Part shown: positions 3,176-63,229 of the stretch, one piece after another
Position numbering within the stretch: the stretch's first letter is position 1
How the letters are laid out: each line of letters opens with the position of its first letter
Origin: Bacteroidales bacterium
Lineage (GTDB): Bacteria; Bacteroidota; Bacteroidia; Bacteroidales; WCHB1-69
NCBI GenBank assembly: GCA_045222555.1
Contig: JBGUYY010000091.1
Location: 11,598 to 75,597 of the forward strand
Length of the DNA stretch: 64,000 bases
Reading direction: 5' to 3'
Program-made: the position numbers and the translations under genes
The notes under the pieces: generated by a model
What the model was told of the DNA's origin: nothing
Database searches by the model: none
The model's input: the letters and a program-made list of their open reading frames with translations, nothing else

Positions 3176-5470
3176 CTACTTCCCGAACGGCAAGGTCAAC
3201 TGCGCCCCCACCTCGAGGTGCGGACTGTCAACGTCTTCAAAGGGCGGATTGAGCAGCCTGCTGATGCGATATTGGAAGTAAACCGACACGATGTCGTAGC
3301 CCAAGCGCGCCCGCACGCCCCACTGTAGTCGCTTGACATCATCGGTGCTCAATCGGAGCAGTGTGTCTCGATTTCGGCTGGCGAGGAATTGTCGGGCAGA
3401 GAAAACGATGCCTCCATAGATGCCAGTATCGAGGAAAATACCGTATCCGAACAGCCCGCCCGCTGCCAAACGGAACCGCTGGTAGATTTCTAACGACAGA
3501 GTTCCCATCGACAATGTGACGCGTTTCCACCATGTGTATTCGGTCAACGAGGAATAGGGATCTAACCCCACAGGCCTGTTCAATCGGTACCAGGTGCCGC
3601 CTAACTCCAAGTTGCCGCCCAGGCTGTACCACTTGCAGAAGTTGTGCTTGTAGCGGATGCCCACCACAAAACTCACCGAGGAACCGCCTTTCACTATGTT
3701 TCCCATATTGGTGCTAATTCTTCCACCTGTAGGCACTGGAAAGCCCAACGAAAAATAGGGCGCGAAGTTGTAACGGGCATTCACCCCGCGCGTTTCGGGG
3801 CGATCGCTTTCGGCGGTGTGACTTTCAGCAATGCGCCAAAGAATGCGCCGGTTGTACAGCTCCTTCGGGACAGTTTCAAGGGTGTCTTGATCTGAATGAT
3901 ATTCAATGGTATATCCGTCATAATGGGCGCGCAACACCCAGCCGTCGATGGTTTTATATTGGGATTTTGGAATTCTGATGATGTTCTCCCGCTCCTTGAT
4001 GAGAATAGTTTTGTACACCACGATGCGGCCGTCGGCTTGGGCAATATGGTAGAGGAGTTGTCCGGTGCGGATGCACTCGTCAGGTACTACGATGAAGATG
4101 GCGGAGTCGTTCTCGTAGAGTTGTAGGGTGGATTTTTCCAATGCCTTTTGGGGATTGACGAAGTAGTCGGCTTGCGGCACGCCGTAGCCATATTGGTAGT
4201 CGTAGTAGGGATAGAGGCTTCCTGACTTTTCAATTTCTGCCAATAGCTGCTGGCAGCTCCATTCGCGGTGGTTTTGCCACGCGCAGGCAGCGAATCCTGC
4301 CGTGAGGGGACTGGCGAAGGAGGTGCCGGAAGCCTTGGTGTAGAGTTGTGAACGCGAGGGATTAGCCACCTCTACGCGGGTGGCCATGGCACTCACGTTG
4401 GGCTTGATCCGCCCGTCGGCGGTTGGCCCCAGCGAGGTGAAGGAGGAGGGGTTGCCGTCGCGGTCGATGCCGCCCACGGCTAGCACATCCTCTGCATCAG
4501 CAGGGGTGATGATGGTGCGCCAGCTGCGGTCGTCGCCCTCGTTACCCATCGAGTTGCACACGAGAATTCCCTTCGCGGCGGCCATCTGCGCGGCCTTCGC
4601 CACCAGCGAGGTGCCGTTCATCTCGTCAGGGTTGTAGCGGTCTTTGCCGTACCCCAACGAGCTGTTGATGATGTTGGCCCCGTTGCGGTCGGCCCACTCC
4701 ATGCCCATCTGCCACCACACCTCCTCAACGCGGTTCTCGAGGCCGGTCTCGGTGCGCGCCAGCAGGAACTCGGCGCCAGTGGCCAACCCTAACGGCCGCC
4801 CGTGCTCGTCGATACCCGCAATGCAGCTCAGCACCATCGTGCCATGCGAGTCCCAGCCATACACGTTCTCCTTCTTCAGCGGGAAGTTGTAGGTGGCCAC
4901 AATGCGATGTTCATCGCGCAGGTGTTGGAATGCCGGATGCGTGTCGGCCATCTTGAAGCCGCCGTCCAAAACAGCGATACGGAGACCTTTGCCGTCAATA
5001 CTCTGCTCGGTAAAAGCCTCTCCTTTCATCAGATAGAGCTGTTCTGTGAGCTGGGTAGGGGTGGAGGTGTTGTTATTGGCAATATCGGTTTCCATTGTGG
5101 CGGGCAAGAAATCGCCGTCAATACGCTGTGCATTTTTTACAAAAGGCAACGCAAGAATATCTTCTATTTGGAAAGTTTTGATTGCCAACGCATTGAACCA
5201 TCTGCTTTCGCCTATCACCTCTTCCGAAAGAGCGGCAGTTTGGCTCTTGTACTGTGCGTTGAGCGGGAAGTCGGTGGAGTCGCAGAGCGGAAGTCCCTGC
5301 TGCAGGCGGCGTTCGATGGCTTTGGGATGAAAGTACGTGGCGGGGTCGAAAGAGGTCTCCTTCTTATCCTTGAAAAATACCCAATAGCACTCTTGTGCAG
5401 AGACGGAGGGTGTATGAAGAATAAGTGTTAAGAGGGAAGAGAAAAGGACAAGAAGGCGGAAGTGTCTCAT
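3176..5470 (-). CDS. S8 (subtilisin) family serine peptidase with a C-terminal beta-barrel-like domain
   Basis: Signal peptide present. Catalytic triad motifs are RIAVLDGGF (Asp), DSHGTMVLS (His) and SGTSFASPLTAG (Ser). The last ~200 aa show alternating beta-strand patterns. Confidence 0.85.
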   Translation of the reverse strand: MRHFRLLVLFSSLLTLILHTPSVSAQECYWVFFKDKKETSFDPATYFHPKAIERRLQQGLPLCDSTDFPLNAQYKSQTAALSEEVIGESRWFNALAIKTFQIEDILALPFVKNAQRIDGDFLPATMETDIANNNTSTPTQLTEQLYLMKGEAFTEQSIDGKGLRIAVLDGGFKMADTHPAFQHLRDEHRIVATYNFPLKKENVYGWDSHGTMVLSCIAGIDEHGRPLGLATGAEFLLARTETGLENRVEEVWWQMGMEWADRNGANIINSSLGYGKDRYNPDEMNGTSLVAKAAQMAAAKGILVCNSMGNEGDDRSWRTIITPADAEDVLAVGGIDRDGNPSSFTSLGPTADGRIKPNVSAMATRVEVANPSRSQLYTKASGTSFASPLTAGFAACAWQNHREWSCQQLLAEIEKSGSLYPYYDYQYGYGVPQADYFVNPQKALEKSTLQLYENDSAIFIVVPDECIRTGQLLYHIAQADGRIVVYKTILIKERENIIRIPKSQYKTIDGWVLRAHYDGYTIEYHSDQDTLETVPKELYNRRILWRIAESHTAESDRPETRGVNARYNFAPYFSLGFPVPTGGRISTNMGNIVKGGSSVSFVVGIRYKHNFCKWYSLGGNLELGGTWYRLNRPVGLDPYSSLTEYTWWKRVTLSMGTLSLEIYQRFRLAAGGLFGYGIFLDTGIYGGIVFSARQFLASRNRDTLLRLSTDDVKRLQWGVRARLGYDIVSVYFQYRISRLLNPPFEDVDSPHLEVGAQLTLPFGK

Positions 5471-6477
5471 TTCTTGATTTTTGAACGGATGTTGATGATG
5501 TAATCGGCAACTTCCTCAATGGTTTCTTCACTTTGGAACAAGGCCATGGAGGGGTCGCGGGGGAGGAAGTATTCGTAGAAGAGATATACGTCAACAGCGT
5601 GATTGTCAAGCGCGATTTTGAACATCCGCATGGCAGGACTGTTCTTGAGCTGTTTTTTGTTGTAGGTGAGATAGGTGTTGACAATGGCCTCTTTTATCCG
5701 CAGGAAAGCGCTCCCGCCCATGTTCGCCGCGTAGCCGGGTTCATATTCCCAAACGGCATTCACCAAAGCATAGGCGAACCAGTCTTCATCGTACTCAATC
5801 ACTACGATATCTTTTTCCTTTTCTTCGTTGTATTCGGTGGAGATGTGGCACTTCGGGTCAAGGTACCAGTCCACGTAGGCCACCTTGTTGGATTTGAAAA
5901 TGCCGTTGAGCATGATATTCAGGTTCTGGTTGTTGCGGTTCAGCACCTTGGCGATGGCAATTTCTTTGAGCGCCCGTTTGGGCTCGCCCGTGTACATACA
6001 GGCGTGGGCCAAACCCCAGTGTGCGAGGTAGTCAACATAGTTGGCTTTTACAGCCTTCTCATACCATTGTTCAGCTTGGAAGTATTCTTTTTCATGAAAA
6101 TAGGTGTCGCCAATATACACGATGACGTTGTACAGGTTGGGATCGATTTCCAGCGCTTTCAGATAATAGTCGCGAGCACCTGAAAAGTCGTAGTCGCCGA
6201 AAAGCTCTTCCGCTTTGTCGTACATCTCCTTCGCTTTTCCTTCCATCACATACTCCTTGATGTCGTAAGAGGAGTCCTGTTGGACACGGAAAAGGGTGTG
6301 GGGGAGCACTTTGTTGGAAAAATCGGTGGCGAGGAAATGCCCGGATTTAAGTGTATAGCTGACCGGTGAGTCGGTCATGATCTGCACGATTTGTGACGGG
6401 GAGTGGATGTCGCGCGACTGGGCGGAAAGGCATAAAGTGGTTGCCAGACAGAGGATAAAAAGTGCTGTTTTTTTCAT
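5467..6477 (-). CDS. Secreted tetratricopeptide-repeat protein
   Basis: Signal peptide MKKTALFILCLATTLCLSAQ. TPR-like helices (ARDYYLKALEIDPNLYN, AEQWYEKAVKANY). A 4-nt ATGA overlap joins it to the downstream S8 gene. Confidence 0.7.
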   Translation of the reverse strand: MKKTALFILCLATTLCLSAQSRDIHSPSQIVQIMTDSPVSYTLKSGHFLATDFSNKVLPHTLFRVQQDSSYDIKEYVMEGKAKEMYDKAEELFGDYDFSGARDYYLKALEIDPNLYNVIVYIGDTYFHEKEYFQAEQWYEKAVKANYVDYLAHWGLAHACMYTGEPKRALKEIAIAKVLNRNNQNLNIMLNGIFKSNKVAYVDWYLDPKCHISTEYNEEKEKDIVVIEYDEDWFAYALVNAVWEYEPGYAANMGGSAFLRIKEAIVNTYLTYNKKQLKNSPAMRMFKIALDNHAVDVYLFYEYFLPRDPSMALFQSEETIEEVADYIINIRSKIKK

Positions 6478-6628
6478 GATGTAAAAGGATTAAAATTTAA
6501 CAGGGCAAAAATACATTTTTTTTCGATTTATAAAAGAAGAATATCTGATTTTTTATGTAACTTTGCCGTTGATTGTGGGATTTTGTGGAGGAATTATTAA
6601 TTAATTGTATATCAATAATTTATAAGAT

Positions 6629-7492
6629 ATGAAAATTCCAGCTTCTGAATTACCGCTGACTCCTGACGGCAGAATCTACCATTTGGGCATCTTTCCTGAA
6701 GATTTGGCCGACTATATTATTGTGGTGGGCGACCCGGGACGTGTGCCAGATGTGTCGAAGTATTTCGACACGGTGGACTTCACCCATGTGAACCGCGAAT
6801 TGGTGGTGCACACGGGCACTCTGCGCGGACAGCGCATCACTGCCCTCTCCACAGGCATGGGCACTGATAACATCGACATTGTGATGACCGAACTGGATGC
6901 CTTGGCCAATATCGACCTGAAGGCGATGGAGGTGAAACCCGAGCACCGCACGCTCAACATTGTGCGTATCGGCACCTGCGGCGCCTTGCAGAAAGAGATT
7001 GATGTCCACTCATTTATCGCTGCTGAGTACGGCTTCGGCCTGGACGGTCTCATGCACTTTTACCAACATGGTGAAGGCTTTGACAATGAGATTGTTAAGG
7101 CGTTCGTGGCGCATACCGGCTGGAACGAAAAGCTTCCCTATCCTTACTGTGCCCAAGGCAGTCCCGAGCTGTTCAATCGCATCGCTTTCGACATGGTGAA
7201 AGGCGTGACCGCCAGCGCCCCTGGCTTCTTCGGACCGCAAGGCCGTGCCGTGCGCGCACAGCTCCAATATCCGGATCTCAACTCCAAAATCGACTCCTTC
7301 CGCTTCGGCGACCGCAAGATTACCAACCTCGAGATGGAGACCTCCGCGCTCTACGGCTTCGGACAAATCATGGGTCACAACGTGCTCACCATCTGCCTCG
7401 CTATCGCCAACCGCATTACCCACGACTTCTCCAAAGACTATCATCCCCACATGGAAAAACTCATCCAAACCGTTCTCAATCGTATTTTCTAA
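6629..7492 (+). CDS. Nucleoside phosphorylase (PNP_UDP_1 family, uridine-phosphorylase-like)
   Basis: Motifs VVGDPGRV, RIGTCGAL and EMETSALY. Confidence 0.8.
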   Translation: MKIPASELPLTPDGRIYHLGIFPEDLADYIIVVGDPGRVPDVSKYFDTVDFTHVNRELVVHTGTLRGQRITALSTGMGTDNIDIVMTELDALANIDLKAMEVKPEHRTLNIVRIGTCGALQKEIDVHSFIAAEYGFGLDGLMHFYQHGEGFDNEIVKAFVAHTGWNEKLPYPYCAQGSPELFNRIAFDMVKGVTASAPGFFGPQGRAVRAQLQYPDLNSKIDSFRFGDRKITNLEMETSALYGFGQIMGHNVLTICLAIANRITHDFSKDYHPHMEKLIQTVLNRIF

Positions 7493-7503
7493 CCTTAACC
7501 ATT

Positions 7504-8061
7504 ATGAAAAGAAATACCCTCCTCTTCGCAATACTCTTCATCGCAGCAGCGGTGCTGTCAACCAGCTGCAAGCGCAAAGTGGAAGAACCAGAGAAAGCTC
7601 CCGAAAAGATAGTTTCTCTTGACCTCTCCGATAGCACGGCTTTCCACGAGCTGGTGCACTTCTACATTACGAACGACATCATTCCGAAGGAGGCCGTATT
7701 GTGCGACCACGAGAGCAAGGGCGGCATGCATACTTTCGAATGTCTTGCCGAAGACCTTGAACTGTGCGCTCCCGACTACCTGCAGGACTCGCTGCATGGC
7801 ACCTTCTTCCAAGAGATTGTCTATCACCCGGGTTCCTCTGGAGATAACAACATCTATATTTGTAAAAAAGACGAGGAGGGCTTCCACCTTCTCAAATCCA
7901 TCATCGGCACCACCAACCCTGACCTCGGTCCGCAAGACGAAATCATCAACGGATACAAAGTGCTCTACTTCCAGACCGAAGATAGTGCCTTCAAACTCTA
8001 TTACGACGGCAATGATTTTGTCACTGAGCCTGTCACCAACCCAACTTTAGCCATCAACTAA
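7504..8061 (+). CDS. Hypothetical lipoprotein
   Basis: Signal peptide with lipobox AAVLSTSC. Confidence 0.55.
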   Translation: MKRNTLLFAILFIAAAVLSTSCKRKVEEPEKAPEKIVSLDLSDSTAFHELVHFYITNDIIPKEAVLCDHESKGGMHTFECLAEDLELCAPDYLQDSLHGTFFQEIVYHPGSSGDNNIYICKKDEEGFHLLKSIIGTTNPDLGPQDEIINGYKVLYFQTEDSAFKLYYDGNDFVTEPVTNPTLAIN

Positions 8062-8066
8062 CCGTT

Positions 8067-10124
8067 ATGCAGTTCACGCAACCGCTATTTCTCATCGGCT
8101 ACGCCGCCATCCTGATCCCCATCCTCATCCACCTTTTTAATTTCAGAAGGTACAAGACCTACTATTTCTCTAATGTGAAGATGTTGCAGGATGTGGCGCA
8201 GAAAACCAAACGCGAGTCGCGGGTGAAGCACCTCATCGTGCTGCTGCTGCGCTGTCTCGCCATCATCGCCCTTGTAACGGCTTTCGCCCGTCCCTATTTC
8301 CCCAACCACAATGCCGATCAGAAAAGCGGCAACCTTGTCACCATCTACGTCGATAACTCCTTCTCCATGGAGGGCAACACCCCCGAAGGAACCCTCTTCT
8401 ACGACGGTATCGAGAACGCCCGGCAGATTGTCAGCCACTTCGACTATGCTGACCAGTTCATCCTCTACAACAACGATTTCACCTCGCGTCAGCGCATGAA
8501 ACTCACCAAAGAGGAGGCCTTGCAGGAACTCAACAACTGGAACATCTCTCCCAACAGCCGCACCTGGAAAGAACTCCTTCCTTTTGAGAAAAGTGCCTGC
8601 ACAGAGAGTGCTGATAAAAATATCTTCCATTATTATATTTCTGATTTTCAAAAGAATAACTTTAATTTTAATGAATTTTCGACGGCTGCAGGCAGTGCCT
8701 CCTACCTCATCCACAAGCCGGCGAAGAGTGTCAGCAACGTGTCGATCGACAGCTGCTGGTTCCTGTCGCCGGTGTTCCGCGCCGGTCAGCAGGTAACGCT
8801 TACGGTTCGTTTGCGCAACTGCGGCGAGGGCGAGGTCATCAAGCTGCCCATGAAGCTGCATGTGAATGGCGAACAGAAGGCCATGGCGGCAGTGGACATT
8901 GCAGCGGGCGGCACCGCCGAGTACCAGCTCAACTATACCCTGTCGGACGATGCCGTGCAGTGCGGCACCCTCTCCATCGACGATGCGCCCATCACCTTCG
9001 ACAACAACCTCTACTTCACCTACCGCGTGTCCGACAACACCCGCATCACTGTTATCGACGAGAAAGAACAGAACCGCTATGTGAACGCCCTCTACGGCAA
9101 AGACTCCATCTTCGAATACAGCGCCATGCCCGCCAGCCGCATCAACTACAGTGCCTTCTCTGGCAGCGCGGTGGTAGTGCTCGACGAGGTGAAATCGATT
9201 TCGTCGGGGTTGGCCGACGAGCTGTCGAAGTACCTGAACAGCGGCGGCACCGTATTGGTGCTTCCCGCGGAGGAGATGGAGGCCGCCTCATGGAACAGTT
9301 TCCTGTCGGGTATCGGGGCCAGCCAGTACGGTAGCCTCGTGCAGCAGGAGCTGAAGGTGGGCAGCATCAACTACGAAAGCATCTACTTCAAAGGCAGTCT
9401 CGACCAGAGCGATGAGCGCATCGACATGCCCACCTCCACGCAGCATTTCACCTTCAGCGACTTCCACACCGACGAGACGGTGATGTCCTTGGAGAACCAA
9501 GCTCCGCTGCTGACCGTGAACAAGGTGGGCAACGGCCGCATCATCCTGTCGGCAGTGGCCATGAACGACCGCTTCGGCAATGTTCACAAGCACGCGCTCT
9601 TCTTTATCCCGCTGCACAACATCGGCATCCGCACGCTGATGCAGCAGAAACTGTACAATACCATTGGCCGTGACCACTCGCAGAGCGTGGCCAAGCAGGT
9701 GGAAAGTTCCGAAAATGTGCTGTCGCTGAAGTCTCAGAAGGGCGGTCAGGAAATCATTCCCGAACAGAAAAACCTCGGCGGCGAAACCATGCTCTTCTTC
9801 AACGACCAGCTGTCGGAGGCGGGCATCTACGATGTGCTGCACGATGGCGCGAAGCAGGATGCGGTTGCCTTCAACTACGACAGGAAGGAGTCGCACCTTA
9901 CCTATCATACCGATAAAGAGTTGCGCGATGCGGTAGCCGCCCAGCCCAAGGAGAGCCATGTGCAACTCATCACCGGTGACTCGCAGGACATCAGCGGTCA
10001 GATTGTGGAAACCATACATGGCAAGCCGTTGTGGTTCTACTTTATCCTTATTGCCTTGGGGTGCCTGCTGGCGGAGGTGGCTATCCTCAGGTTGTGGAGG
10101 CACCGCGAAAAAACTCAAGTTTGA
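8067..10124 (+). CDS. BatA_N (N-terminal double-transmembrane domain) membrane protein
   Basis: MQFTQPLFLIGYAAILIPILIHLFNFRRYK is the typical aerotolerance-regulator N-terminal motif. There is an additional C-terminal TM helix. Confidence 0.7.
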   Translation: MQFTQPLFLIGYAAILIPILIHLFNFRRYKTYYFSNVKMLQDVAQKTKRESRVKHLIVLLLRCLAIIALVTAFARPYFPNHNADQKSGNLVTIYVDNSFSMEGNTPEGTLFYDGIENARQIVSHFDYADQFILYNNDFTSRQRMKLTKEEALQELNNWNISPNSRTWKELLPFEKSACTESADKNIFHYYISDFQKNNFNFNEFSTAAGSASYLIHKPAKSVSNVSIDSCWFLSPVFRAGQQVTLTVRLRNCGEGEVIKLPMKLHVNGEQKAMAAVDIAAGGTAEYQLNYTLSDDAVQCGTLSIDDAPITFDNNLYFTYRVSDNTRITVIDEKEQNRYVNALYGKDSIFEYSAMPASRINYSAFSGSAVVVLDEVKSISSGLADELSKYLNSGGTVLVLPAEEMEAASWNSFLSGIGASQYGSLVQQELKVGSINYESIYFKGSLDQSDERIDMPTSTQHFTFSDFHTDETVMSLENQAPLLTVNKVGNGRIILSAVAMNDRFGNVHKHALFFIPLHNIGIRTLMQQKLYNTIGRDHSQSVAKQVESSENVLSLKSQKGGQEIIPEQKNLGGETMLFFNDQLSEAGIYDVLHDGAKQDAVAFNYDRKESHLTYHTDKELRDAVAAQPKESHVQLITGDSQDISGQIVETIHGKPLWFYFILIALGCLLAEVAILRLWRHREKTQV

Positions 10125-10146
10125 AATCACTTTAAAATAATATAGT

Positions 10147-11604
10147 ATGAAAATGACAGATTTAGAACCCAAAGCGATTTTTCATTATTTCAATGAAATC
10201 TGCAAAGTGCCCCGTCCCTCCAAGAAAGAGGAGAAGATGACGGAATGGCTGCTGAAAACCGGCAAGGAGCTTGGCTTGGAAAGTAAACGCGACAAAGCTG
10301 GCAACGTGCTGATTTCCAAACCCGCCACCAAGGGCAAAGAGAATGTCACCCCCGTGATTTTCCAAGCCCACATGGATATGGTGTGCGAAAAGAACAATGA
10401 CACGAAGTTCGACTTCGAGAAAGATGCCATTCAGGCCTATGTCGATGGCGAATGGCTGAAGGCTAAAGGTACCACCCTCGGCGCTGACGATGGTATCGGT
10501 ATCGCCATTGCCCTCGCATTCCTCGCAGACAAGAAAATCAAACACGGTCCCATCGAATGCCTCTTTACCGTGGATGAAGAGACCGGCCTCACCGGCGCTT
10601 TCGCCCTGAAACCGGGCTTCATGACCGGCAAGATTCTCCTCAACCTCGACTCTGAGGACTGGGGCGAGATCTTCATCGGCTGTGCTGGTGGTAAGGACAC
10701 CGTGGCCACTTACGAGTGCGAGTATGAAGACCAGATTCCCGAAGACTCTGTCGCTTATAAAGTGACTGTTGGTGGTCTGCTGGGCGGCCATTCCGGTGAC
10801 GACATCAACAAGAACCGCGGTAATGCGGTGAAGCTGCTCAACCGCATTTTGTGGAATGCCTATCAGGAATACGATGCCCGTATCGCCGACATCAACGCTG
10901 GCAACCTGCGCAACGCCATCGCCCGCGAAGGCTGGGCCATCGTCACGATGCCGAAGGGCAAAGCTGCCGCTTTTCGCAAGTATGTCGCCAAGGCCGATGC
11001 TGACTTCAAGAACGAGTTCCATACCAGCGACCCTGGCGTGTATGCCGAGTGCAAGAAGATGACCAAGTTGCCGGAACGTATCCTCAACGAGATGTTGCAG
11101 ATCGACGTGATGAACGCCTTGTATGCCTGTCCTCACGGCGTGCTGGCCATGTCGCAGGACATCCCCGGCTTCGTGGAGACCTCCACGAACCTCGCTTCTG
11201 TGAAGCTGATCGACGACAAGATCGTCATCACCACCAGCCAGCGCAGCTCGGTGGAGAGCCGCAAACAGGATGCTTGCGACCATGTGTCATGCGCCTTCTA
11301 CGCCACCGCCGCCGACGATGTGGCGCAGGGTGATGGCTATCCGGGCTGGAATCCCAATCCCAACTCACAGGCTCTCAAATTGTTAGTGAAGGCTTACAAG
11401 AATATCTTCCACGAGGATCCTGCCGTCAAGGCCATCCATGCCGGCCTCGAATGCGGTCTCTTCTCCGAAAAATATCCTGAACTCGATATGGTATCCTTCG
11501 GACCCACTCTGCGCGGCGTTCACTCTCCGGACGAAAAGTTGGAGATTGCCACCGTACAGAAATGCTGGGACCTCATCCTCGAGTTCTTCCGTCTTCTGAA
11601 ATAA
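10147..11604 (+). CDS. pepD: Aminoacyl-histidine (Xaa-His) dipeptidase, M20 family
   Basis: Full-length colinear with PepD: LEPKAIFHYFNEICKVPRPSKKEE, FQAHMDMV, TTLGADDGIG. Confidence 0.9.
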   Translation: MKMTDLEPKAIFHYFNEICKVPRPSKKEEKMTEWLLKTGKELGLESKRDKAGNVLISKPATKGKENVTPVIFQAHMDMVCEKNNDTKFDFEKDAIQAYVDGEWLKAKGTTLGADDGIGIAIALAFLADKKIKHGPIECLFTVDEETGLTGAFALKPGFMTGKILLNLDSEDWGEIFIGCAGGKDTVATYECEYEDQIPEDSVAYKVTVGGLLGGHSGDDINKNRGNAVKLLNRILWNAYQEYDARIADINAGNLRNAIAREGWAIVTMPKGKAAAFRKYVAKADADFKNEFHTSDPGVYAECKKMTKLPERILNEMLQIDVMNALYACPHGVLAMSQDIPGFVETSTNLASVKLIDDKIVITTSQRSSVESRKQDACDHVSCAFYATAADDVAQGDGYPGWNPNPNSQALKLLVKAYKNIFHEDPAVKAIHAGLECGLFSEKYPELDMVSFGPTLRGVHSPDEKLEIATVQKCWDLILEFFRLLK

Positions 11605-11676
11605 TCTATTTCTAATCCGAGGAGGATTTGCCACAGCAAATCCTCCTCTTTTCATCTTTTCATCCATTAATCTTTC

Positions 11677-12825
11677 ATGAAACACACCCTCTTCCTCCTT
11701 TTCCTCCTTCCCTCCCTGCTTTTCGCACAAGTTTATCCCCAAAACAAACCTAATAAGAATCTCAGTGAACTGAGTGTCAGTGAATTGAATGAGCTTTTCG
11801 ACGAAGCCAATCTCGCTCACAAGACCAAGGCCGTGCAGGCGCATGCCGATACAATGTGCAAAAAACTCAACGGCACGCTGCTCATCGCGCAGAACGACGT
11901 GGTGTTGGCCCACAAAGCGGCAGGTTACAAGGTGCTGGACAAGAAAGACCAGCCCCTCTCCGAAAATACCTGTTTCGAGCTGGCCTCTGTCTCCAAGGAG
12001 TTCACCGCCGCCGCCGTACTGCTGCTAGTGCAGGAGGGGAAAGTCAGCCTCAACGACTATCTGGGAAAATATTTTCCTGGTTTGCCCTATTCGGGCATCA
12101 CGGTACACAACTTGCTGTGCCATACTTCCGGTCTGCCGGAGTACTTCAACTTCAAGGAGTCGTGGTGGCCGCAGGGACGGCTCACCAAGAACCAGGACGT
12201 GGTGGATGTTCTCATCAAATACCAACCCAAAAGAATCTTTGTCCCGGGAACCAGCTACAAATACACCAACACCAATTACGCCTTGCTGGCACTGATTGTG
12301 GAGCAGGCTTCGGGCAAGAAATTCGAGGATTTTGTCAGAGAGAACATTTTCGAGCCGGCAGGCATGACCTCCTCTTTCTACATCACCGAGCGGGCTTCCA
12401 AGATTGGCTATAGCATCGCCACGGGTCATAAAGCCGACCGTATTCCGCAGGTTATCAAAGGGTTGGATGGTACTTTCGGCGATAAGGGAATGTACTCCAC
12501 CATCCACGATTTGTTTGCATGGAAGAAAGCCTACTTCACCAACTATACCATTCTCCCCAAGGAGGTGGTGGAGATGGCCACCACGGCACAAAACCAACTC
12601 AAAGGTAGCGGTAAGCCTTCCGAGGACTATGGCTACGGCTGGCATTTGGAGGAAAATCCCTATTATGGTCACATCATCTATCATGGCGGGTTGTGGCATG
12701 GCTTCAACCATGTGCTGCTCTACTATCCTGAAAGAGATATTTTCATGGTTTTCCTTAGCAACTATTGCAATCGTGGGCATCGCGGACATACCGCCAATGT
12801 GCTGCATATCCTTTGTGGAGCATAG
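11677..12825 (+). CDS. Serine hydrolase, beta-lactamase-related (class C-like)
   Basis: Signal peptide present. SxxK motif ASVSKEF, a YxN-like YTNTNY, and a C-terminal HGG. Confidence 0.8.
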   Translation: MKHTLFLLFLLPSLLFAQVYPQNKPNKNLSELSVSELNELFDEANLAHKTKAVQAHADTMCKKLNGTLLIAQNDVVLAHKAAGYKVLDKKDQPLSENTCFELASVSKEFTAAAVLLLVQEGKVSLNDYLGKYFPGLPYSGITVHNLLCHTSGLPEYFNFKESWWPQGRLTKNQDVVDVLIKYQPKRIFVPGTSYKYTNTNYALLALIVEQASGKKFEDFVRENIFEPAGMTSSFYITERASKIGYSIATGHKADRIPQVIKGLDGTFGDKGMYSTIHDLFAWKKAYFTNYTILPKEVVEMATTAQNQLKGSGKPSEDYGYGWHLEENPYYGHIIYHGGLWHGFNHVLLYYPERDIFMVFLSNYCNRGHRGHTANVLHILCGA

Positions 12826-12963
12826 TCCTTAACTTCTCTGTTCCTACAACTGTTTTATACCCAATCTTTTAAAAATTGAAAAAATTTTTTCTCAATTGGT
12901 TGAGGGTATGATTTTTTTTTCTAATTTTGCACACTTGTAAATAGAATAAAACCGTTTTCAGAT

Positions 12964-13665
12964 ATGAGCGAGAAAAAATCATCTAAAGTTGACCTTGAAT
13001 CCAGGTTAGTCAACTTCTTTCTGTTGGGTTGCGCCATTGGTCTGACCCTCTCATTGCTGGCACTTGATATTTGGGCCAGCGTGAAAACTTCCACTGGTGC
13101 CTCTCTTGCTACCGAGGCAGAACCTGCCGTGGAAGACTTGCAGATGCCGAATACCGACATTGAAACTCCTCCGCCACCAGAACCGGAACAGGCTCCTGAG
13201 CAGGAAGAGGTTGTGGAACAGATTCTGAAGGAAACCCAGGAGGAAGTGGCCACCAACTTCGAGTTCAGTATGGAAGCTGATGATGAAACTTCCATTGAAG
13301 CAGATGACGAGGATATTGATACGGGTACTGAAATCGTTGAGATTGAGGAACCTATTGAACGTGTACCTCAGGTGCGTGCTGAGTTCCCCGGCGGTATGGG
13401 TGAATTGAGAAAGTATCTTGCTGAAAACTGCCAGTATCCTGAATCCGCCCGTCAAGCCGGATGGCAGGGTGTGGTCATGCTGGAATTTGTGGTTGAAAAG
13501 GATGGTAGCATCAAGCAAGTCAACGTGTTGAGAAGCGTTTGCCAAGCTCTTGACGAAGAGGCTATCCGCGTGGTGAAAGGTATGCCGAAGTGGAAAGCCG
13601 GTGAGAACAACGGTCAGAAGTGCCGCTCCTTCTTCCAGCTCCCCATCACCTTCTCGCTGCAATAG
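12964..13665 (+). CDS. TonB family energy transducer
   Basis: N-terminal TM helix, a Pro/Glu-rich linker (PPPPEPEQAPEQEE), and a TonB C-terminal domain AEFPGGMGELRKYL...GWQGVVMLEFVVEKDGS. Confidence 0.8.
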   Translation: MSEKKSSKVDLESRLVNFFLLGCAIGLTLSLLALDIWASVKTSTGASLATEAEPAVEDLQMPNTDIETPPPPEPEQAPEQEEVVEQILKETQEEVATNFEFSMEADDETSIEADDEDIDTGTEIVEIEEPIERVPQVRAEFPGGMGELRKYLAENCQYPESARQAGWQGVVMLEFVVEKDGSIKQVNVLRSVCQALDEEAIRVVKGMPKWKAGENNGQKCRSFFQLPITFSLQ

Positions 13666-13682
13666 TCTTTTTGCATAACAAT

Positions 13683-13718
13683 AAAAAAGCCCTGTAATTG
13701 ATTACGGGGCTTTTTTTT
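13683..13718. terminator. Bidirectional hairpin terminator between convergent genes
   Basis: Stem AAGCCCTGTAAT / ATTACGGGGCTT, flanked by an A-run and a T-run. Confidence 0.7.
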
Positions 13719-13748
13719 ATGTCTTTTTTTTAATGAATAATGTTCTGA

Positions 13749-14366
13749 TTAGAACCCCCACATATCATTGATGGCCATGTCATCGCTGTAGAAGTCGAGG
13801 ATATCGTAATCCACTTCGTCGAGGTCATTCTCATCAAGATTCTCCGTGATGAACTGGTCGGTGACGGGATCTGCCACGGGTTGTGCTTGGGCGGTGTACT
13901 GTGTTTTTTTCGCTGGTTCGGCAGGCGTGTCGGTATAGGCCAGCGCTTTGTCGAGGTTGAGCGTGTTTTGCGGGGCTTCAACGGGGGCGGGGTGAGTGCC
14001 TTTCACATGGGCCACCTTGCCACCAGACAGCTCTTCCGGATTTTGAAGCATGTTGAAAACATAGATGCCTGTACCCATCAGCAAACCTGCGCATGCGGCC
14101 ACGGAGGCGATACGCACCCAGCGGCGTTGCAGGAACAGCTTTTTGCTGGGTTCAGCGGCCACTTTCGCCATTACGGCATCCGGCAGTTGTGCAAAATAAT
14201 TCTCAGGAACGGGATATCCCTCGTTGGTGCGGTGCGCCTCTAAAAGGGCCTGCATCTGAGCATCCTCTTCAGCAATGCGCGCCAACACCTGGTCGGGCAG
14301 GCTATCGAAATAGCCCTCCGGCGTAGGAGCCTGACGATTCTTGTATTGGTCTAATATCTCTTCCAT
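13749..14366 (-). CDS. Single-pass membrane protein with a duplicated cytoplasmic PE-x-YF-xx-LPD-x-V motif and an acidic C-terminal tail; last gene of the HydS-like module
   Basis: ATG at 14366 (MEEILDQ...). The ORF-track start at 14456 is a GTG abutting the upstream stop and encodes an implausible leader. The two repeats are PEGYFDSLPDQVLARI and PENYFAQLPDAVMAKV. TM helix WVRIASVAACAGLLMGTGIYVF. Confidence 0.55.
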   Translation of the reverse strand: MEEILDQYKNRQAPTPEGYFDSLPDQVLARIAEEDAQMQALLEAHRTNEGYPVPENYFAQLPDAVMAKVAAEPSKKLFLQRRWVRIASVAACAGLLMGTGIYVFNMLQNPEELSGGKVAHVKGTHPAPVEAPQNTLNLDKALAYTDTPAEPAKKTQYTAQAQPVADPVTDQFITENLDENDLDEVDYDILDFYSDDMAINDMWGF

Positions 14367-14452
14367 TGAATTTTCGGGAAACGCTCTCTTGACGTGTAAG
14401 TTGCGGGAAAGTTTAAACGGATTTGAAAATTTTTTGAAAAATAAATAAAAAA

Positions 14453-15823
14453 TCACTCCAAGTCCAGATGCTTGATGGAATCCTTATCGACTTTGACCTC
14501 GCCCCACACCTTCTTGGTGATTTTGAGGGCTTCGGCAGTGGTGAGCTTGTCGGTCTGTTCGAGGATGCGCTGCACGAAGATGCATTGGCGGATGTCAGCC
14601 TGGTTGTTGACCACGGCTTCGGCGAGGGCCTTGCAGGTCTGGTAGCCACAGATACGGCAGTCCACCTTGGGCAGGTCGTTGGTGATTTCGAACACTTTCT
14701 TCATCTTGCGCATGGCGATGGAGATATTGTCGTCGAGTTTGTCCATGGAGCGGGGCTGTACTTCGCCCACAGCCAGGTTTTCCTTGAGGTAGTCTTTGTA
14801 GTTGAGGATGTTATTCTCTTGCGGGGTGACAGTTTTCGGACGCTGTTTGGCGCGTTTGCGCTGCCGTTCGGCGATGAGGAAGCGGTTGCCGGCGCACAGG
14901 ATGCCGCCCGCGCAGCTCTCGTCGCAGGCGCGCAGTTCGAGGAAGTCGATGCTGTCGAGGTCTTCGTTCTCTAGCTTGTCGAGAAAGGCCGACACGTTGT
15001 GTACCTCGTCGATAGCGAGGTTGCGGCCTACGGGGATGTCTTTGATCTCGCCGCCGGTGAGTGACCACAAGATGCTGTTTTTGGAGAGGGGATGGAAGTC
15101 AAACTCATCTTCCCTCAGGGTATAAACGCCCTGCTTGATAACACGGAACACCTTGTTGTACAGGTAGTTCATGTTGATAACACCATCAATGTTGGATTTT
15201 TCCTCTCCGACGGGGCTTTTCACAGCGGCGATCTTGGCGGCGCAGGGAGCCACGTAGAAGATGCCGATATCTTCGGGTGCGACACCGCGTTCCACGAGCA
15301 CCTCGCGGATATACAGGGCGGTGACATCCAACGGGGGTTTTGTAAGCAGCAGGTTGTCCACCAGGGAGGGGTATTTTACTTGGATGAGGCGCACGATGGC
15401 GGGACAGAAGGTAGAGATGATGGGCTTTTCTGCCGATTCGTCTTTTACTTTGTCATTGATGACCTCTTTCAACACATCCACGCTCTTCTCCACCTCATAC
15501 ACGAACTTGAAGCCGAGGTGGTAGATGGCGGAGAGGATGGCGCGTTGGCTCACCTTTTCCGGAAACTGCGCGCTGAAGATGGAGGGCACCAGCAGCACGG
15601 GGCATTTGAAGTTGTAGATGGTTTCGAAGTCGTCCTGCTCGATATAGATGGCATTCATGGGGCAGGTCTGGTAGCACATGCCGCAGTCGATGCAGCGGTT
15701 GGCATCGAGAATGGGATGGCCGTCCTCCACATGGATGGCACAGGTGGGGCACACGCTGGTGCAGTGCGAGCAGCCGATGCAGAGGTCGTATTTGAACTTG
15801 AGGGCGTGGTGAATGTGTTCCAT
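14453..15823 (-). CDS. [FeFe]-hydrogenase-like Fe-S protein: 2x[4Fe-4S] ferredoxin, Fe_hyd_lg_C-like domain and a C-terminal Cys cluster; putative sensory HydS-type
   Basis: Ferredoxin motifs CIGCSHCTSVCP and CIDCGMCYQTCP. H-cluster-like motifs STFCPAI, APCAAK and ELRACDESCAGG. C-terminal CRICGYQTC...C. Confidence 0.8.
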   Translation of the reverse strand: MEHIHHALKFKYDLCIGCSHCTSVCPTCAIHVEDGHPILDANRCIDCGMCYQTCPMNAIYIEQDDFETIYNFKCPVLLVPSIFSAQFPEKVSQRAILSAIYHLGFKFVYEVEKSVDVLKEVINDKVKDESAEKPIISTFCPAIVRLIQVKYPSLVDNLLLTKPPLDVTALYIREVLVERGVAPEDIGIFYVAPCAAKIAAVKSPVGEEKSNIDGVINMNYLYNKVFRVIKQGVYTLREDEFDFHPLSKNSILWSLTGGEIKDIPVGRNLAIDEVHNVSAFLDKLENEDLDSIDFLELRACDESCAGGILCAGNRFLIAERQRKRAKQRPKTVTPQENNILNYKDYLKENLAVGEVQPRSMDKLDDNISIAMRKMKKVFEITNDLPKVDCRICGYQTCKALAEAVVNNQADIRQCIFVQRILEQTDKLTTAEALKITKKVWGEVKVDKDSIKHLDLE

Positions 15824-15829
15824 GGTGGG

Positions 15830-16240
15830 TTAGAAATAGTTGACGATTTCCACGGTGGTGCCTTTGCCCACCACCGAGTTGACGGTGAGCTTGTCGGAAT
15901 TGCTCTGCATGTTGGGCAGACCCATGCCAGCACCGAAGCCCATCTCGCGCACTTCGGGCGAGGCGGTGGAGTAGCCCTTCTGCATGGCCTGGTTGATGTC
16001 GGGGATGCCGGGACCTTCATCCACCAGCTTGATGCTGACGCTGGTGTCTTCCAGATCCACATAGATAACCCCCCGGTAGGCGTGGGCCACAATGTTGACT
16101 TCGGCCTCATAGAGGGCCACCACGGTACGTTTCACAATCGCCGGGTCCACACCCAGCTGTTTCATCATCTTCTTCACTTTACTGGAGGTGGTGCCTGCAT
16201 TGGTGAAATCGCCACCTTCCACATTATATTCAAAATGCAT
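15830..16240 (-). CDS. GHKL/HATPase_c_2 ATP-binding protein (anti-sigma-factor-type Ser/Thr kinase-like)
   Basis: N-box EAEVNIVAHAY, G1 VDEGPGIPD, G2 GFGAGMGLPNM. Confidence 0.8.
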   Translation of the reverse strand: MHFEYNVEGGDFTNAGTTSSKVKKMMKQLGVDPAIVKRTVVALYEAEVNIVAHAYRGVIYVDLEDTSVSIKLVDEGPGIPDINQAMQKGYSTASPEVREMGFGAGMGLPNMQSNSDKLTVNSVVGKGTTVEIVNYF

Positions 16241-16252
16241 AATCTCTAATTT

Positions 16253-16600
16253 TTAATAAACCCCTGGAAGCCCTGCATTGAAAAGGGTTCCCGAAGTGCG
16301 GTACAAGGAAAGGTCTGTGGTGATGAGCAGCATGTCGTTGTCTTCGGCCAGCTCTTTCATCTCCTCAGTGACTTTTTTGCCACGGACGAACAACACCACT
16401 TTGATGTCAGACATCTCACACGTTCTGATGGTCTGCGTGTTGCAAAGACCGGTAATCAGCATTACTGATTTTTCGGTGCGCAGCGTCAGTACGTCGCTCA
16501 TCAGGTCCGAGGCGAAGGCGCAGTCAATTTCCCTGTCGCAGAACGCCTCGCCCTCTACGACAGTACCTGAAATTAGGGATGTGATTTCTTGTATTTTCAT
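16253..16600 (-). CDS. DRTGG-domain-like protein
   Basis: ATG at 16600 (MKIQEITS...). The longer TTG start at 16645 overlaps the -7 box. The pattern ASDLMSDVL...ITGLCNTQTIRT...VRGKK resembles the small DRTGG proteins found next to hydrogenase operons in Firmicutes. Confidence 0.65.
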   Translation of the reverse strand: MKIQEITSLISGTVVEGEAFCDREIDCAFASDLMSDVLTLRTEKSVMLITGLCNTQTIRTCEMSDIKVVLFVRGKKVTEEMKELAEDNDMLLITTDLSLYRTSGTLFNAGLPGVY

Positions 16601-16631
16601 GGGAATAATAAAATGGTCATTAAATCGGGTG

Positions 16632-16639
16632 CAAAGATA
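16632..16639 (-). promoter_or_regulatory. -7 box TATCTTTG (minus strand) for the DRTGG/HATPase/HydS-like operon
   Basis: The reverse complement of caaagata matches TAnnTTTG, about 30 nt upstream of the ATG at 16600. Confidence 0.45.
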
Positions 16640-16690
16640 CGACAATTTGTTGAAAGATGGGGAGAAAAATGAAGAGATGGCCGTGTCTTT

Positions 16691-17936: not shown

Positions 17937-18362
17937 TTAGCTTTGGAAGGGTTTTGTCACCACGAAGGTGACGTTCTTTTCGATGCGCTTGCGGAAAACC
18001 CACAGCAGGACAAAGTACAGTGCGGTGAGGCCGAGCGACACGACCACGTTGACCCACTCCGCCGAGCAGACAAGGTACATGAGGCAGAAGGAGGCAAACA
18101 GCACGATGAACGGCACCAAGTAGCAGATGACCACCGCTTTCATGGCGAGGGTCTGTCGCATCTCCACCGCCACGGTGTCGCCCACGGACAGATCAAGGCG
18201 GTTGATGTTGATGGCGTTCACCACCTTGTCGCGGCTTTCGGCAGCCCCGCAGATTCCTTTGGCATGGCAGCCGGAACAGGCCGATCCGACGGTCATCTTC
18301 ACCGTAACTTTCAACCCATCAACAGATTGAACGATGCCTTCATGTTTGATGCTATTCTCCAT
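17937..18362 (-). CDS. RseC/MucC family (SoxR-reducing system) membrane protein
   Basis: HEGIVQSVDGLKVTVKM...SACSGCHAKGICG followed by two TM helices. The start is uncertain: ATG at 18362 overlaps the upstream stop by 11 nt, and the alternatives are 18392 and 18413. Confidence 0.65.
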   Translation of the reverse strand: MENSIKHEGIVQSVDGLKVTVKMTVGSACSGCHAKGICGAAESRDKVVNAININRLDLSVGDTVAVEMRQTLAMKAVVICYLVPFIVLFASFCLMYLVCSAEWVNVVVSLGLTALYFVLLWVFRKRIEKNVTFVVTKPFQS

Positions 18363-18987
18363 CTTCCTCTTGTCTTCTTTTAAGTTCTTCATCGATTTCT
18401 GCCGCCAGCTCAAAATTCTCAGCCTCCTCTGCTGTTTTCAGCAGTTGTCGCAACTGCCGTTCGGAAGCCATGGTGAGGTCGAGCGGGATGGATTCGCCGT
18501 TGCCCAGTTCAAAGTGGTCGGGTTCGCCGTCATCGGACAGCATGTCGGGCTGGGAGGTTGACTGCGATTGCAGGAACTTATCCTTCTGGTTGTAGGAGGT
18601 GGCGTTGAACACCGACTCCACAAAGCAGATGGGAGCATGGGCTTTGAGGGCCAGCACCACTGCGTCCGACAGGCGCGATTCGATTTGGAAAGCGCCCTGC
18701 GGACCCTGCAGTTCGAGATGGGCAAGATAAATGCCTTCGCGGAAACCGTCCACCAGCACCTTCTCCACCCTTGCGCCGGAGTGGTCGAGCAGGGTCATGA
18801 AAAGGTCGTAGGACATCGGACGGGGGAGTCGGATGTGGTTCAGTTCCAGCACCACACTCCTCGCTTCGTTGAGTCCGATAAGCACCGGCACGAAGCGGTC
18901 GCCGCCTTTCTCGTGCAGCACCAAGGTGAACGCATCGCCAGAAACAGGCATTCGCTGGGGGTAAACCACTTCGACTTCAATTTCCAT
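18352..18987 (-). CDS. Bifunctional nuclease (BFN/DUF151) with a C-terminal UVR motif
   Basis: FVPVLIGLNEARSVVLEL is a DUF151 core. RQLRQLLKTAEEAENFELAAEIDEELKRRQ is UvrB/C-type. A TACTTTTG box lies upstream at about 19007-19014. Confidence 0.8.
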   Translation of the reverse strand: MEIEVEVVYPQRMPVSGDAFTLVLHEKGGDRFVPVLIGLNEARSVVLELNHIRLPRPMSYDLFMTLLDHSGARVEKVLVDGFREGIYLAHLELQGPQGAFQIESRLSDAVVLALKAHAPICFVESVFNATSYNQKDKFLQSQSTSQPDMLSDDGEPDHFELGNGESIPLDLTMASERQLRQLLKTAEEAENFELAAEIDEELKRRQEEDGE

Positions 18988-19182: not shown

Positions 19183-19256
19183 TGGGCGTTGGTGTAATGG
19201 CAACACTACAGATTCTGGTCCTGTCATTGAAGGTTCGAGTCCTTCACGCCCAACCA
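19183..19256 (+). tRNA. tRNA-Gln (anticodon CTG), 74 nt with encoded CCA
   Basis: Hand-folded cloverleaf. Acceptor TGGGCGT/ACGCCCA. D stem GTGT/ACAC. Anticodon arm ACAGA-TTCTGGT-CCTGT with one A-C mismatch at 31-39. T arm GAAGG-TTCGAGT-CCTTC. Discriminator A plus CCA. Confidence 0.85.
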
Positions 19257-62957: not shown

Positions 62958-62965
62958 TATATTTG
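62958..62965 (+). promoter_or_regulatory. -7 box TATATTTG, with a TTG at 62934-62936, for the riboswitch-nrdD transcript
   Basis: Matches TAnnTTTG, immediately upstream of the riboswitch P1 stem. Confidence 0.5.
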
Positions 62966-62970
62966 CCACG

Positions 62971-63134
62971 CGATTCGGGTTCCTCGGATTAATAGGGAAT
63001 CCTGTGAAAATCAGGAGCTATTCCCGTAGCTGTAAAGTTCTACCCCCACTCTCTGTCTCAATGCCACTGACAAATCCTCCGATTGTCGGGAAGGCGGCAG
63101 AGAACAGAACAAGCCAGAAGACCTGCCCGCATCG
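62971..63134 (+). promoter_or_regulatory. Cobalamin (B12) riboswitch aptamer
   Basis: Hallmark blocks AATAGGGAATCCTGTGAAAATCAGGAGCT, GCCACTG, GGGAAGGC and B12 box GCCAGAAGACCTGCC. P1 pairs CGATTCGGG (62971-62979) with CCCGCATCG (63126-63134). Confidence 0.85.
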
Positions 63135-63229
63135 TCAAATGTAGCTTTCGGGATAAAAGCATACATGTCCGTGAGGATCCGTAATTATCCCTGTAACTTG
63201 CCATTAACCAACCAGTTAACCATAACCTT

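Follow-up and report, generated by a model that had tools for sequence, protein, structure and literature searches.

A conserved gene trio around a predicted group D [FeFe] hydrogenase of HydS type, standing apart from hydABC in an uncultured rumen Bacteroidales

Introduction

The closest described relative of the system treated here is TamHydS of Thermoanaerobacter mathranii, a group D (M2e) [FeFe] hydrogenase (PMC8163306; PMC10407848; PMC13104023). Group D enzymes have two N-terminal [4Fe-4S] motifs, an H-domain and a C-terminal Cx2Cx4Cx16C motif, and carry no PAS domain. Their proton-relay residue Cys299 is lost (mostly Ala is present), and a hydroxyl residue (Ser/Thr) occupies the position of Met353 (PMC8163306). 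A putative proton path exclusive to group D consists of E252, E289, S/T249 and D265 in the TamHydS numbering (PMC10407848). In the literature, group D genes often adjoin HydABC genes, which is a frequent setting and not a strict criterion. In the latest study of TamHydS, its interaction partners are stated as unknown (PMC13104023). Here, we describe a locus in a 64-kilobase (kb) stretch of DNA from an uncultured rumen Bacteroidales (contig JBGUYY010000091.1; the whole stretch of 64,000 nucleotides is called the window), at which a gene for a HydS protein of this type follows genes for a small DRTGG-fold protein and a GHKL ATPase. These three genes are called the trio. A sequence-only reading of the window had taken the trio and a fourth gene, encoding a membrane protein, as one H2-sensing or redox-sensing module.

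Three other systems can be compared with the trio or parts of it. Group C (M2f) includes HydS of T. maritima, HydS of R. albus and HfsB of T. saccharolyticum; these proteins have a C-terminal PAS domain, and their genes pair with those of Ser/Thr kinases and PP2C phosphatases. The hfsABCD operon of Thermoanaerobacterium was considered as the closest system and rejected, since HfsB carries a PAS domain (PMC5707799) and is of group C type. In the SpoIIAB/SpoIIAA and RsbW/RsbV systems, a single-domain GHKL protein of the Ser-kinase class goes with a small single-domain STAS protein. In Cupriavidus necator, the regulatory [NiFe] hydrogenase HoxBC is a low-activity hydrogenase that senses H2 and controls a kinase (HoxJ, acting with HoxA). 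In this respect it resembles the role considered here. However, its metal site and protein family are unrelated, and the trio has no counterpart either of HoxJ, a classical PAS histidine kinase, or of its response regulator. Searches for DRTGG, PHP or anti-sigma proteins together with hydrogenases gave no description of the trio among the papers searchable; in PMC4374699 anti-sigma is mentioned for flagella only. In the rumen and gut, the course of fermentation and the amount of methane released depend on the partial pressure of hydrogen, and H2 sensing by [FeFe]-type sensors is still unsolved in bacteria.

Results and discussion

The trio as the conserved unit

One genome per species was scanned, and at least 533 species have a relative; 80 Bacteroidales loci were fetched for comparison. 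The order DRTGG protein, HATPase_c_2 ATPase and HydS on one strand was found in 80/80 loci. The DRTGG gene lies upstream of the ATPase gene in 79 of them, and the single exception is cut by the contig end. Outside the Bacteroidales, the three-gene order is shared by Caldicellulosiruptor bescii, Coprothermobacter and a Thermoanaerobacter whose protein is 96% identical to TamHydS. These results indicate that the genuine unit comprises three genes and leaves out the membrane protein gene. The DRTGG and GHKL genes had been proposed as partners of HydS, and their co-conservation in order bears this out; the proposed co-conservation of a four-gene module holds for the trio, whereas the membrane protein gene follows it in 2/80 loci.

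According to the list of open reading frames (ORFs), all four genes of the locus are located on the minus strand. Gene 1 (16253–16600) encodes the DRTGG-fold protein of 115 residues from ATG, gene 2 (15830–16240) the GHKL ATPase of the SpoIIAB/RsbW (HATPase_c_2) class with 136 residues, gene 3 (14453–15823) the HydS protein of 456 residues, assigned below to group D, and gene 4 (13749–14366) a single-pass membrane protein of 205 residues from ATG. A form of gene 1 with 130 residues starting at TTG is an over-extension, because the orthologues measure 114–115 residues. The gaps between the four ORFs are 12, 6 and 86 nucleotides from gene 1 to gene 4. This arrangement behind the box TATCTTTG, as given in the sequence-only reading, was confirmed by direct reading.

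The box TATCTTTG (16632–16639, minus strand) is a predicted Bacteroidota-type −7 promoter box, TAnnTTTG being the Bacteroidota −7 consensus. It is located 31 nucleotides 5' of the ATG of gene 1 and 90 nucleotides past the stop codon of the preceding M16 peptidase gene. The exact 8-mer occurs three times in the window against 1.55 expected, which is no enrichment. A TAnnTTTG(C) box stands at the equivalent position 5' of gene 1 in 7/9 relatives (among them L002, L004, L006, L007, L009 and L013, where L002 is the nearest species representative, ruminal_MAG_166, JBGUPJ010000036), and the upstream DNA is otherwise unalignable. These results support a predicted promoter of Bacteroidota type belonging to the trio itself. 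At the other end, a hairpin search and reading of the sequence gave a strong bidirectional intrinsic terminator (13683–13716, both strands) with a 15-bp stem, an A-run and a T-run. It closes both the transcription unit of the trio plus gene 4 and the convergent TonB_C gene. No hairpin terminator was found inside the four-gene unit, the AT-rich 86-nucleotide spacer included, and an Rfam scan detected no RNA element near the trio. The membrane protein gene is thus probably co-transcribed with the trio at this locus.

The 205-residue membrane protein has two N-terminal P-x-P-E-x-Y-F-x-x-L-P-D repeats. It matches no Pfam family and contains no recognisable domain. Only two of the 80 loci have a homologue behind the trio, namely L002 (73% identity) and L007 (45% in the best tblastn segment and 38% over the whole alignment). 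The ratio of nonsynonymous to synonymous substitution rates (dN/dS) is 0.23 for the membrane protein against 0.02 for HydS, and the former evolves about ten times faster. Behind other trios that stand alone, the next gene encodes QueA, a cargo protein of the type IX secretion system, an ArsP_2 permease, a thioredoxin-like protein, UvrA, a steroid-reductase-like protein or an M28 peptidase, and these genes are unrelated to one another. Since the membrane protein is found in 2/80 loci and unrelated genes take its place elsewhere, it is a local passenger, or lineage-specific neighbour, and no credible general output. Its earlier nomination as the candidate output is not sustained.

Group assignment of HydS

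The 456-residue protein has a full set of cluster ligands. The two N-terminal [4Fe-4S] motifs are C15x2C18x2C21x3C25P and C44x2C47x2C50x3C54P, the H-cluster motifs are STFCPAI (137–143), APCAAK (192–197) and ELRACDESCAGG (296–307), and the C-terminal [4Fe-4S] cluster motif is C389x2C392x4C397x16C414. All these motifs had been noticed from the sequence, and the cluster-ligating Cys residues are positionally conserved in the alignment. For the C-terminal cluster, the four Cys residues are present, and the spacing had to be corrected: the second gap is 4 residues, not the 3 of CxxCxxxC, so that the motif has exactly the Cx2Cx4Cx16C spacing of group D and is identical in spacing to that of TamHydS. 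In Pfam, two Fer4 motifs, Fe_hyd_lg_C (80 bits) and the PF04060 FeS domain (46 bits) were matched; in NCBIfam, only sub-threshold matches to group A and B hydrogenase models were obtained. No PAS domain was matched at E ≤ 0.01, and the chain ends 42 residues past the last Cys.

The TamHydS sequence used as the reference was obtained by translating the codon-optimised DNA that the supplement of PMC13104023 gives; machine-read indels were repaired by eye, so a few residues may be wrong, and the register was checked against the published C20, K126, A137, E252 and C379. The window HydS aligns with TamHydS end to end, with 34% identity over 416 residues (E = 4e-82). STFCP corresponds to SSACP of TamHydS, APCAAK to SPCAAK, and ELRACDESCAGG to EGLACIGGCIGG. 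The H-cluster residues C140, C194, C300 and C304 (CpI C300, C355, C499 and C503) are invariant in 78 Bacteroidales sequences and in 17 group D sequences of Bacillota and Coprothermobacterota, and the Cys residues of the two N-terminal motifs are invariant in the HydS alignments of relatives. T256, E259, D272 and E296 of the window protein correspond to S249, E252, D265 and E289 of TamHydS, i.e. to the putative proton path exclusive to group D. Among the Bacteroidales HydS proteins, E259, D272 and E296 are invariant (78/78), and position 256 is Thr in 77 and Ser in one. Lys197 aligns with Lys358 in the CpI motif MPCxxK and is kept in the 78 sequences except two, both from loci linked to hydABC. 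At the position of CpI M353, the window has Ala192; across the 78 loci, Thr (66), Ser (5) and Ala (7) are found. The position of the proton-relay residue C299 of CpI is occupied by Phe139. The Phe had been pointed out before and is indeed present, but it is no mark of the orphan state, for it is shared by 77/78 Bacteroidales sequences and is also found beside hydABC.

An AlphaFold2 model of the protein has a predicted local distance difference test score (pLDDT) of 86 and a predicted template modelling score of 0.85. The top Foldseek matches of the model are [FeFe] hydrogenases, with template modelling (TM) scores of 0.61–0.66; a PDB sequence search found no solved structure of group C or D. 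In a distance tree (neighbour-joining, calculated without bootstrap or the HydDB classifier), the window HydS falls into a Bacteroidales clade that is sister to the Bacillota (TamHydS-like) group D clade. The group A3 HydA paralogues and a 621-residue, PAS-bearing group C-like paralogue are placed at a clear distance from it. The placement check proposed with the sequence-only reading is thereby answered in favour of group D. The orthologue of Anaerophaga thermohalophila (L052) is 49% identical, has the same neighbours and falls into the same 90% cluster as WP_016777702.1, which is in the Table S6 list of 70 group D enzymes (PMC13104023). Parabacteroides, Odoribacter, Marinilabilia, Alkaliflexus and Proteiniphilum are on the same list (PMC13104023).

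According to motifs, alignment and tree, the 456-residue protein is assigned to group D (M2e, TamHydS-type) of the [FeFe] hydrogenases. The earlier designation as a putatively sensory hydrogenase of HydS type holds as to the type; the comparison with the PAS-bearing Thermotoga proteins of group C does not. The window HydS resembles group C in the N-terminal clusters, in an H-domain without the proton-relay Cys, in the C-terminal four-Cys cluster and in a putative regulatory role beside kinases or phosphatases. It differs in the lack of a PAS domain and is only 17–21% identical to the 621-residue group C-like paralogue of Anaerophaga. With TamHydS it shares the domain order, the absence of PAS, a non-Cys residue at the C299 position and the proton-path residues. 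The differences from TamHydS are Phe instead of Ala at the C299 position, Arg instead of Leu at the M497 position, Ala instead of Ser at the M353 position, a Cys-D-E-S-Cys loop instead of Cys-I-G-G-Cys, and a longer C-terminal tail with an invariant Trp-Gly. The window HydS is an ordinary member of a catalogued group, of which Bacteroidota members were known before.

The DRTGG-fold protein and the ATPase

The product of gene 1 taken alone scores 16.9–17.3 bits with Pfam DRTGG (PF07085), under the cut-off of 25.2. Among its orthologues, 59/63 match DRTGG at E ≤ 0.01, the best with E = 2e-11. The AlphaFold2 model has a pLDDT of 95, and its best PDB match is 2IOJ (AF1212, a DRTGG protein), with a TM score of 0.79 and a root-mean-square deviation of 2.3 Å. 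The next structural match is the DRTGG domain of the CBS-pyrophosphatase of C. perfringens (TM 0.73–0.75). The eponymous D-R-T-G-G residues are missing, and a nine-residue motif, SDLMSDVLT (residues 31–39), is invariant. From the model, the gene 1 product is predicted to be a small single-domain protein of DRTGG fold. No fusion of DRTGG with the ATPase or with HydS was found among the 120 best DRTGG homologues.

The 136-residue protein consists of a single GHKL domain (HATPase_c_2, 45 bits against a cut-off of 27.4 in Pfam). Its N, G1 and G2 boxes had been described as intact; in 66 orthologues, N49 (N box), D74xG76xG78 (G1) and G101xG103xG105xG107 (G2) are all invariant. The amino-acid sequence of the ATPase is identical on 134 contigs. 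A profile of the 66 orthologues matched SpoIIAB structures with E = 5e-12 and RsbW with E = 1.7e-4. The protein is SpoIIAB-like in fold, and SpoIIAB is its closest solved relative. It was not filed as an anti-sigma factor, because the scores of the SpoIIAB/RsbW equivalog models are far under the cut-offs (TIGR01925 SpoIIAB, 63 bits against 135) and no STAS protein or sigma factor is nearby. The likeness to SpoIIAB/SpoIIAA and RsbW/RsbV lies in a single-domain protein with intact boxes encoded next to a small single-domain partner, and a SpoIIE-type phosphatase gene adjoins two trio loci. The difference is that the fold of the partner is DRTGG instead of STAS, that no sigma factor is nearby, and that phosphotransfer by the trio ATPase is only putative. 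To our knowledge, Bacteroidota have no SigF or SigB regulons.

Linked and orphan loci

The surroundings of the trio were classified for the 78 loci with an intact HydS gene, and a locus was called linked when hydB or hydA lies within 10 kb. In 48 loci, the trio is linked and stands at the head of the HydABC cluster; 8 loci are partial, with a second DRTGG gene and a PHP gene only, with or without a second ATPase gene; in the remaining 22, about a quarter, the trio is alone (orphan). These orphans are mostly from metagenome-assembled genomes of rumen, horse, yak and buffalo gut and have varied housekeeping surroundings. According to ORF clustering of the 80 loci, the common order after the trio is a second DRTGG protein (111 residues), a PHP protein (about 246 residues), a 180-residue HATPase_c protein, a 2Fe-2S ferredoxin-like protein, HydB (597 residues), HydA (590 residues) and HydC (160 residues). 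Some linked loci have a second NuoE/NuoF/HydA set before the trio, and sometimes Rex. The Bacillota loci have the same gene content, with HydC placed earlier. From these gene orders, the trio heading a cluster for the electron-bifurcating HydABC hydrogenase is shown to be the commonest and the ancestral setting in Bacteroidales and Bacillota. The HydS proteins of L003, L008, L009 and L013 are 77–88% identical to the window HydS, and their genes are still beside hydABC. Thus, the orphan state is derived and reflects recurrent loss of linkage. The window trio has the same upstream DRTGG and HATPase_c_2 genes as the TamHydS-type locus, from which it differs in not being beside HydABC, PHP, a second DRTGG or a second ATPase gene.

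The window was searched by tblastn with HydG, HydA, HydB, HydC, PHP, 181-residue ATPase and Rex queries from related loci, and the 456-residue gene alone was matched. Pfam scans covered 40 further window ORFs together with the annotation of 10–21 kb; among the scanned ORFs only housekeeping families, and no Radical_SAM, HydF-type GTPase, STAS or sigma-70 families, were found, the six ORFs at 3176–10124 and the 1122-residue ORF at 57957–61325 lying outside these scans. Fourteen small scanned ORFs have no Pfam match. Within this scope, the earlier statement that hydABC, hydEFG, STAS and sigma factor genes are missing from a housekeeping neighbourhood is upheld.

Two kinds of neighbour were observed upstream of the trio. 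In 12/80 loci, e.g. at L034:152–802 (ORF cluster c9), the trio is directly preceded by a gene for the redox-sensing repressor Rex (NF003994, 269 bits). The window has no Rex gene; in linked clusters, this repressor may act as the transcriptional arm. In A. thermohalophila (L052:5822–8902) and in L059, the 621-residue group C-like HydS (Fer4, Fe_hyd_lg_C, FeS and a weak PAS_9 match) is encoded upstream of the group D trio. A gene for a 397-residue SpoIIE-type PP2C phosphatase is located between the two, directly upstream of the trio. The Anaerophaga-type locus therefore has two different putative H2 sensors and two HydABC sets together.

Selection and maturation

Against L002, whose HydS is 99% identical, the dN/dS values are 0.021 for HydS, 0.000 for the ATPase and 0.027 for the DRTGG protein, compared with 0.08–0.23 for the flanking genes. 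All sixteen cluster-ligating Cys residues, Lys197 and the group D proton-path residues are kept in 22/22 orphans. The orphan trio is under strong purifying selection.

Synonymous divergence (dS) between window positions 14453–16600 and L002:9224–11371 is 0.24 for the ATPase and 0.47 for HydS, against 1.2–1.7 in the flanking genes, and the DNA identity is 87–96% in the trio and 65–89% in the flanks. The low dS of the trio could come from codon-level constraint or from cassette recombination between lineages. Recent horizontal transfer was considered as the cause of the 99–100% protein identity of the trio to L002 (70–80% in the flanks) and was rejected, because dS in the trio (0.24–0.93) is not near zero. 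Strong constraint, perhaps with some recombination, is enough for the high identity.

On the L002 contig, HydG (TIGR03955, 482 bits against a cut-off of 312) is encoded 8 kb from the orphan trio and is paired with a TM1266-like gene (PF21699, 'iron-only hydrogenase system regulator'). The pair lies at L082:9648–11455 (JBGUPJ010000036, the L002 genome) without HydE or HydF beside it, and the pair recurs on the L083 and L084 contigs. Because HydG and the TM1266-like gene are near the orphan trio of the closest species, a maturase-free lineage is unlikely; the check for maturases beyond the window covers this neighbour species. Synteny between the window and L002 spans only 6551–16640. At the spot of the window that corresponds to HydG, the gene is absent, and a TPR lipoprotein and an S8 peptidase are encoded instead. 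As the window has no HydG and synteny ends at 6551, its own maturase genes, if present, are outside the 64 kb.

Proposed function and alternatives

We consider it fairly probable that the trio is a regulatory cassette built around the group D HydS. We infer an H2-sensing role for this protein, as is done for group D in the literature. HydS would bind H2 at a matured H-cluster and then change conformation, as reported for TamHydS. This change would gate the SpoIIAB-like GHKL ATPase, which would act on the DRTGG protein by phosphorylation or by ATP-dependent binding and sequestration. The logic would be similar to partner switching, with the DRTGG protein in place of the STAS protein of SpoIIAB/RsbW systems. 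The SpoIIE-type phosphatase gene directly upstream of the trio in L052 and L059 is a hint at such switching. In a full cluster, the PHP protein would reverse the step directed at the DRTGG protein. In the orphan form, the output would act in trans on a target encoded elsewhere, most plausibly the hydrogenase or the fermentation genes or enzymes of the cell. A bolder form of this proposal is tentative, and we give it a lesser chance. In it, the trio would be a minimal self-sufficient H2 sensor-transducer, a non-canonical partner switch with a hydrogenase as input, which in Bacteroidales of gut and rumen is no longer coupled to HydABC and steers targets elsewhere.

Several points weigh against the proposed cassette. 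We know of no experiment that proves any group D enzyme to be a sensor, and of no DRTGG protein that is phosphorylated; in this respect, the invariant SDLMSDVLT motif with its Ser and Thr residues is no more than a hint. The trio encodes no DNA-binding or other output domain, and its orphan form lacks the PHP protein, the obvious phosphatase candidate. HydG is missing from the window where L002 has it. The residues lining the presumed active-site pocket include Phe139 and Arg298, where TamHydS has Ala and Leu. TamHydS itself turns over H2 slowly (PMC8163306). A favoured idea about its signalling was removed by the finding that H2 does not reduce its C-terminal cluster (PMC13104023).

The main rival to the regulatory cassette is a slow but genuine catalytic role, and the other three alternatives are each less likely. 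In the catalytic reading, HydS would be a working hydrogenase of low turnover, or a ferredoxin-linked redox valve, tuned or assembled by the GHKL and DRTGG proteins, and perhaps the main [FeFe] hydrogenase in genomes that have the trio only. TamHydS both evolves and oxidises H2, at low rates (PMC8163306). The N-terminal ferredoxin-like clusters, which serve other hydrogenases as the catalytic electron path, are conserved without exception, as are the group D proton-path residues needed for turnover, and HydG is kept near an orphan trio. However, HydS lacks the canonical proton pathway of group A, and the rates measured for the characterised member are low. The trio heads a cluster that already encodes full HydABC in 48/78 loci, where a control role fits better than a redundant enzyme, and the obligatory linkage to an ATPase of the SpoIIAB class is left unexplained. 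On balance we regard this role as rather unlikely.

It is improbable that HydS has no [2Fe] subcluster and is a plain Fe-S sensor of redox state or O2, comparable to Nar1/NARF, so that the trio would report redox state and not H2. Such a protein would agree with the lack of a maturase gene in the 64-kb window, with the bulky Phe139 and the charged Arg298 in place of small or hydrophobic residues beside the [2Fe] site, and with the Cys-D-E-S-Cys loop, where other group D members have Cys-x-G-G-Cys. Yet the H-cluster Cys residues and the proton-path Glu and Asp residues are invariant in 78/78 sequences, and Lys197 is so in all but two; these residues have no role without a [2Fe] site. Phe139 and Arg298 are also found in trios beside HydABC, and the closest species has HydG and the TM1266-like gene on the same contig as its orphan trio.

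A slightly smaller chance is given to the version of the sequence-only reading, in which the four genes form an operon and the membrane protein is the signalling output. The common strand, the spacer without a terminator, the shared terminator after gene 4 and the retention of the arrangement in L002 and L007 are consistent with this version. The membrane protein is, however, absent from 78/80 related loci, unrelated genes follow other orphan trios, its dN/dS is that of a fast-evolving protein beside the conserved HydS, and it has no recognisable signalling domain; as a general rule, the version is largely refuted. The view of the trio as a decaying remnant, left after loss or relocation of a HydABC cluster, would account for the missing PHP, second DRTGG, second ATPase and hydABC genes at the locus, but it is refuted by the selection data (dN/dS of 0 to 0.03, no frameshifts, all ligands intact, a conserved promoter box), and the trio-only state recurs in 22 species representatives, so that we hold it to be extremely improbable.

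Other features of the window

The other genes of the window are housekeeping genes, encoding TyrRS, NusB, a rhomboid protein, PGK, SecDF, RpiB, M16 peptidases, PepD, a beta-lactamase-fold protein, the TonB_C protein and others. Two genes upstream of the trio, at 17937–18392 (minus strand), a gene of the RseC_MucC family (91 bits), which has ties to Fe-S and redox systems, was noticed. As a redox partner of the trio it was rejected: it is retained in L007 only and is probably incidental. A tRNA gene (Rfam, 54 bits) is located at 19183–19253 (plus strand) between a BFN-domain gene and a TPR gene, and the 66-residue ORF opposite to it is an artefact of the tRNA gene.

Towards the far end of the window, an AbiEii toxin and a DUF6088 (AbiEi-like) protein form a type IV toxin–antitoxin pair (55028–56633, minus strand) that adjoins a dip in GC content (0.42 at 56–58 kb); this region may be a small mobile insertion. 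The 1122-residue protein (57957–61325, minus strand) has an N-terminal membrane segment and a very long coiled coil rich in Lys, Glu and Gln, and the extreme AT and GC skew at 58–62 kb is due to this ORF. A cobalamin riboswitch (Rfam RF00174, 102 bits) was detected at 62960–63144 (plus strand), about 400 nucleotides upstream of a small ORF (63543–63941) for which Pfam gave no match.

Significance

The invariance of the trio across phyla and its frequent survival as a stand-alone unit in animal-gut Bacteroidales are not described in the searchable papers. The TamHydS locus by itself already reveals the candidates for interaction partners. What is gained is a sharper hypothesis rather than a new kind of system; the window holds a context variant of the known group D system, which is useful and unsurprising. 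An invariant three-gene core across two to three phyla makes the SpoIIAB-like ATPase and the DRTGG protein candidate partners of HydS. If the bolder proposal of a self-sufficient sensor-transducer is true, these would be the interaction partners named as missing by the 2026 TamHydS study. The trio alone is under strong selection in many animal-gut Bacteroidales, which shows that the putative sensor need not adjoin the enzyme that it is presumed to control. Under the bolder proposal, the partial pressure of H2 around these bacteria, which methanogens and other neighbours set, would control targets elsewhere in the genome.

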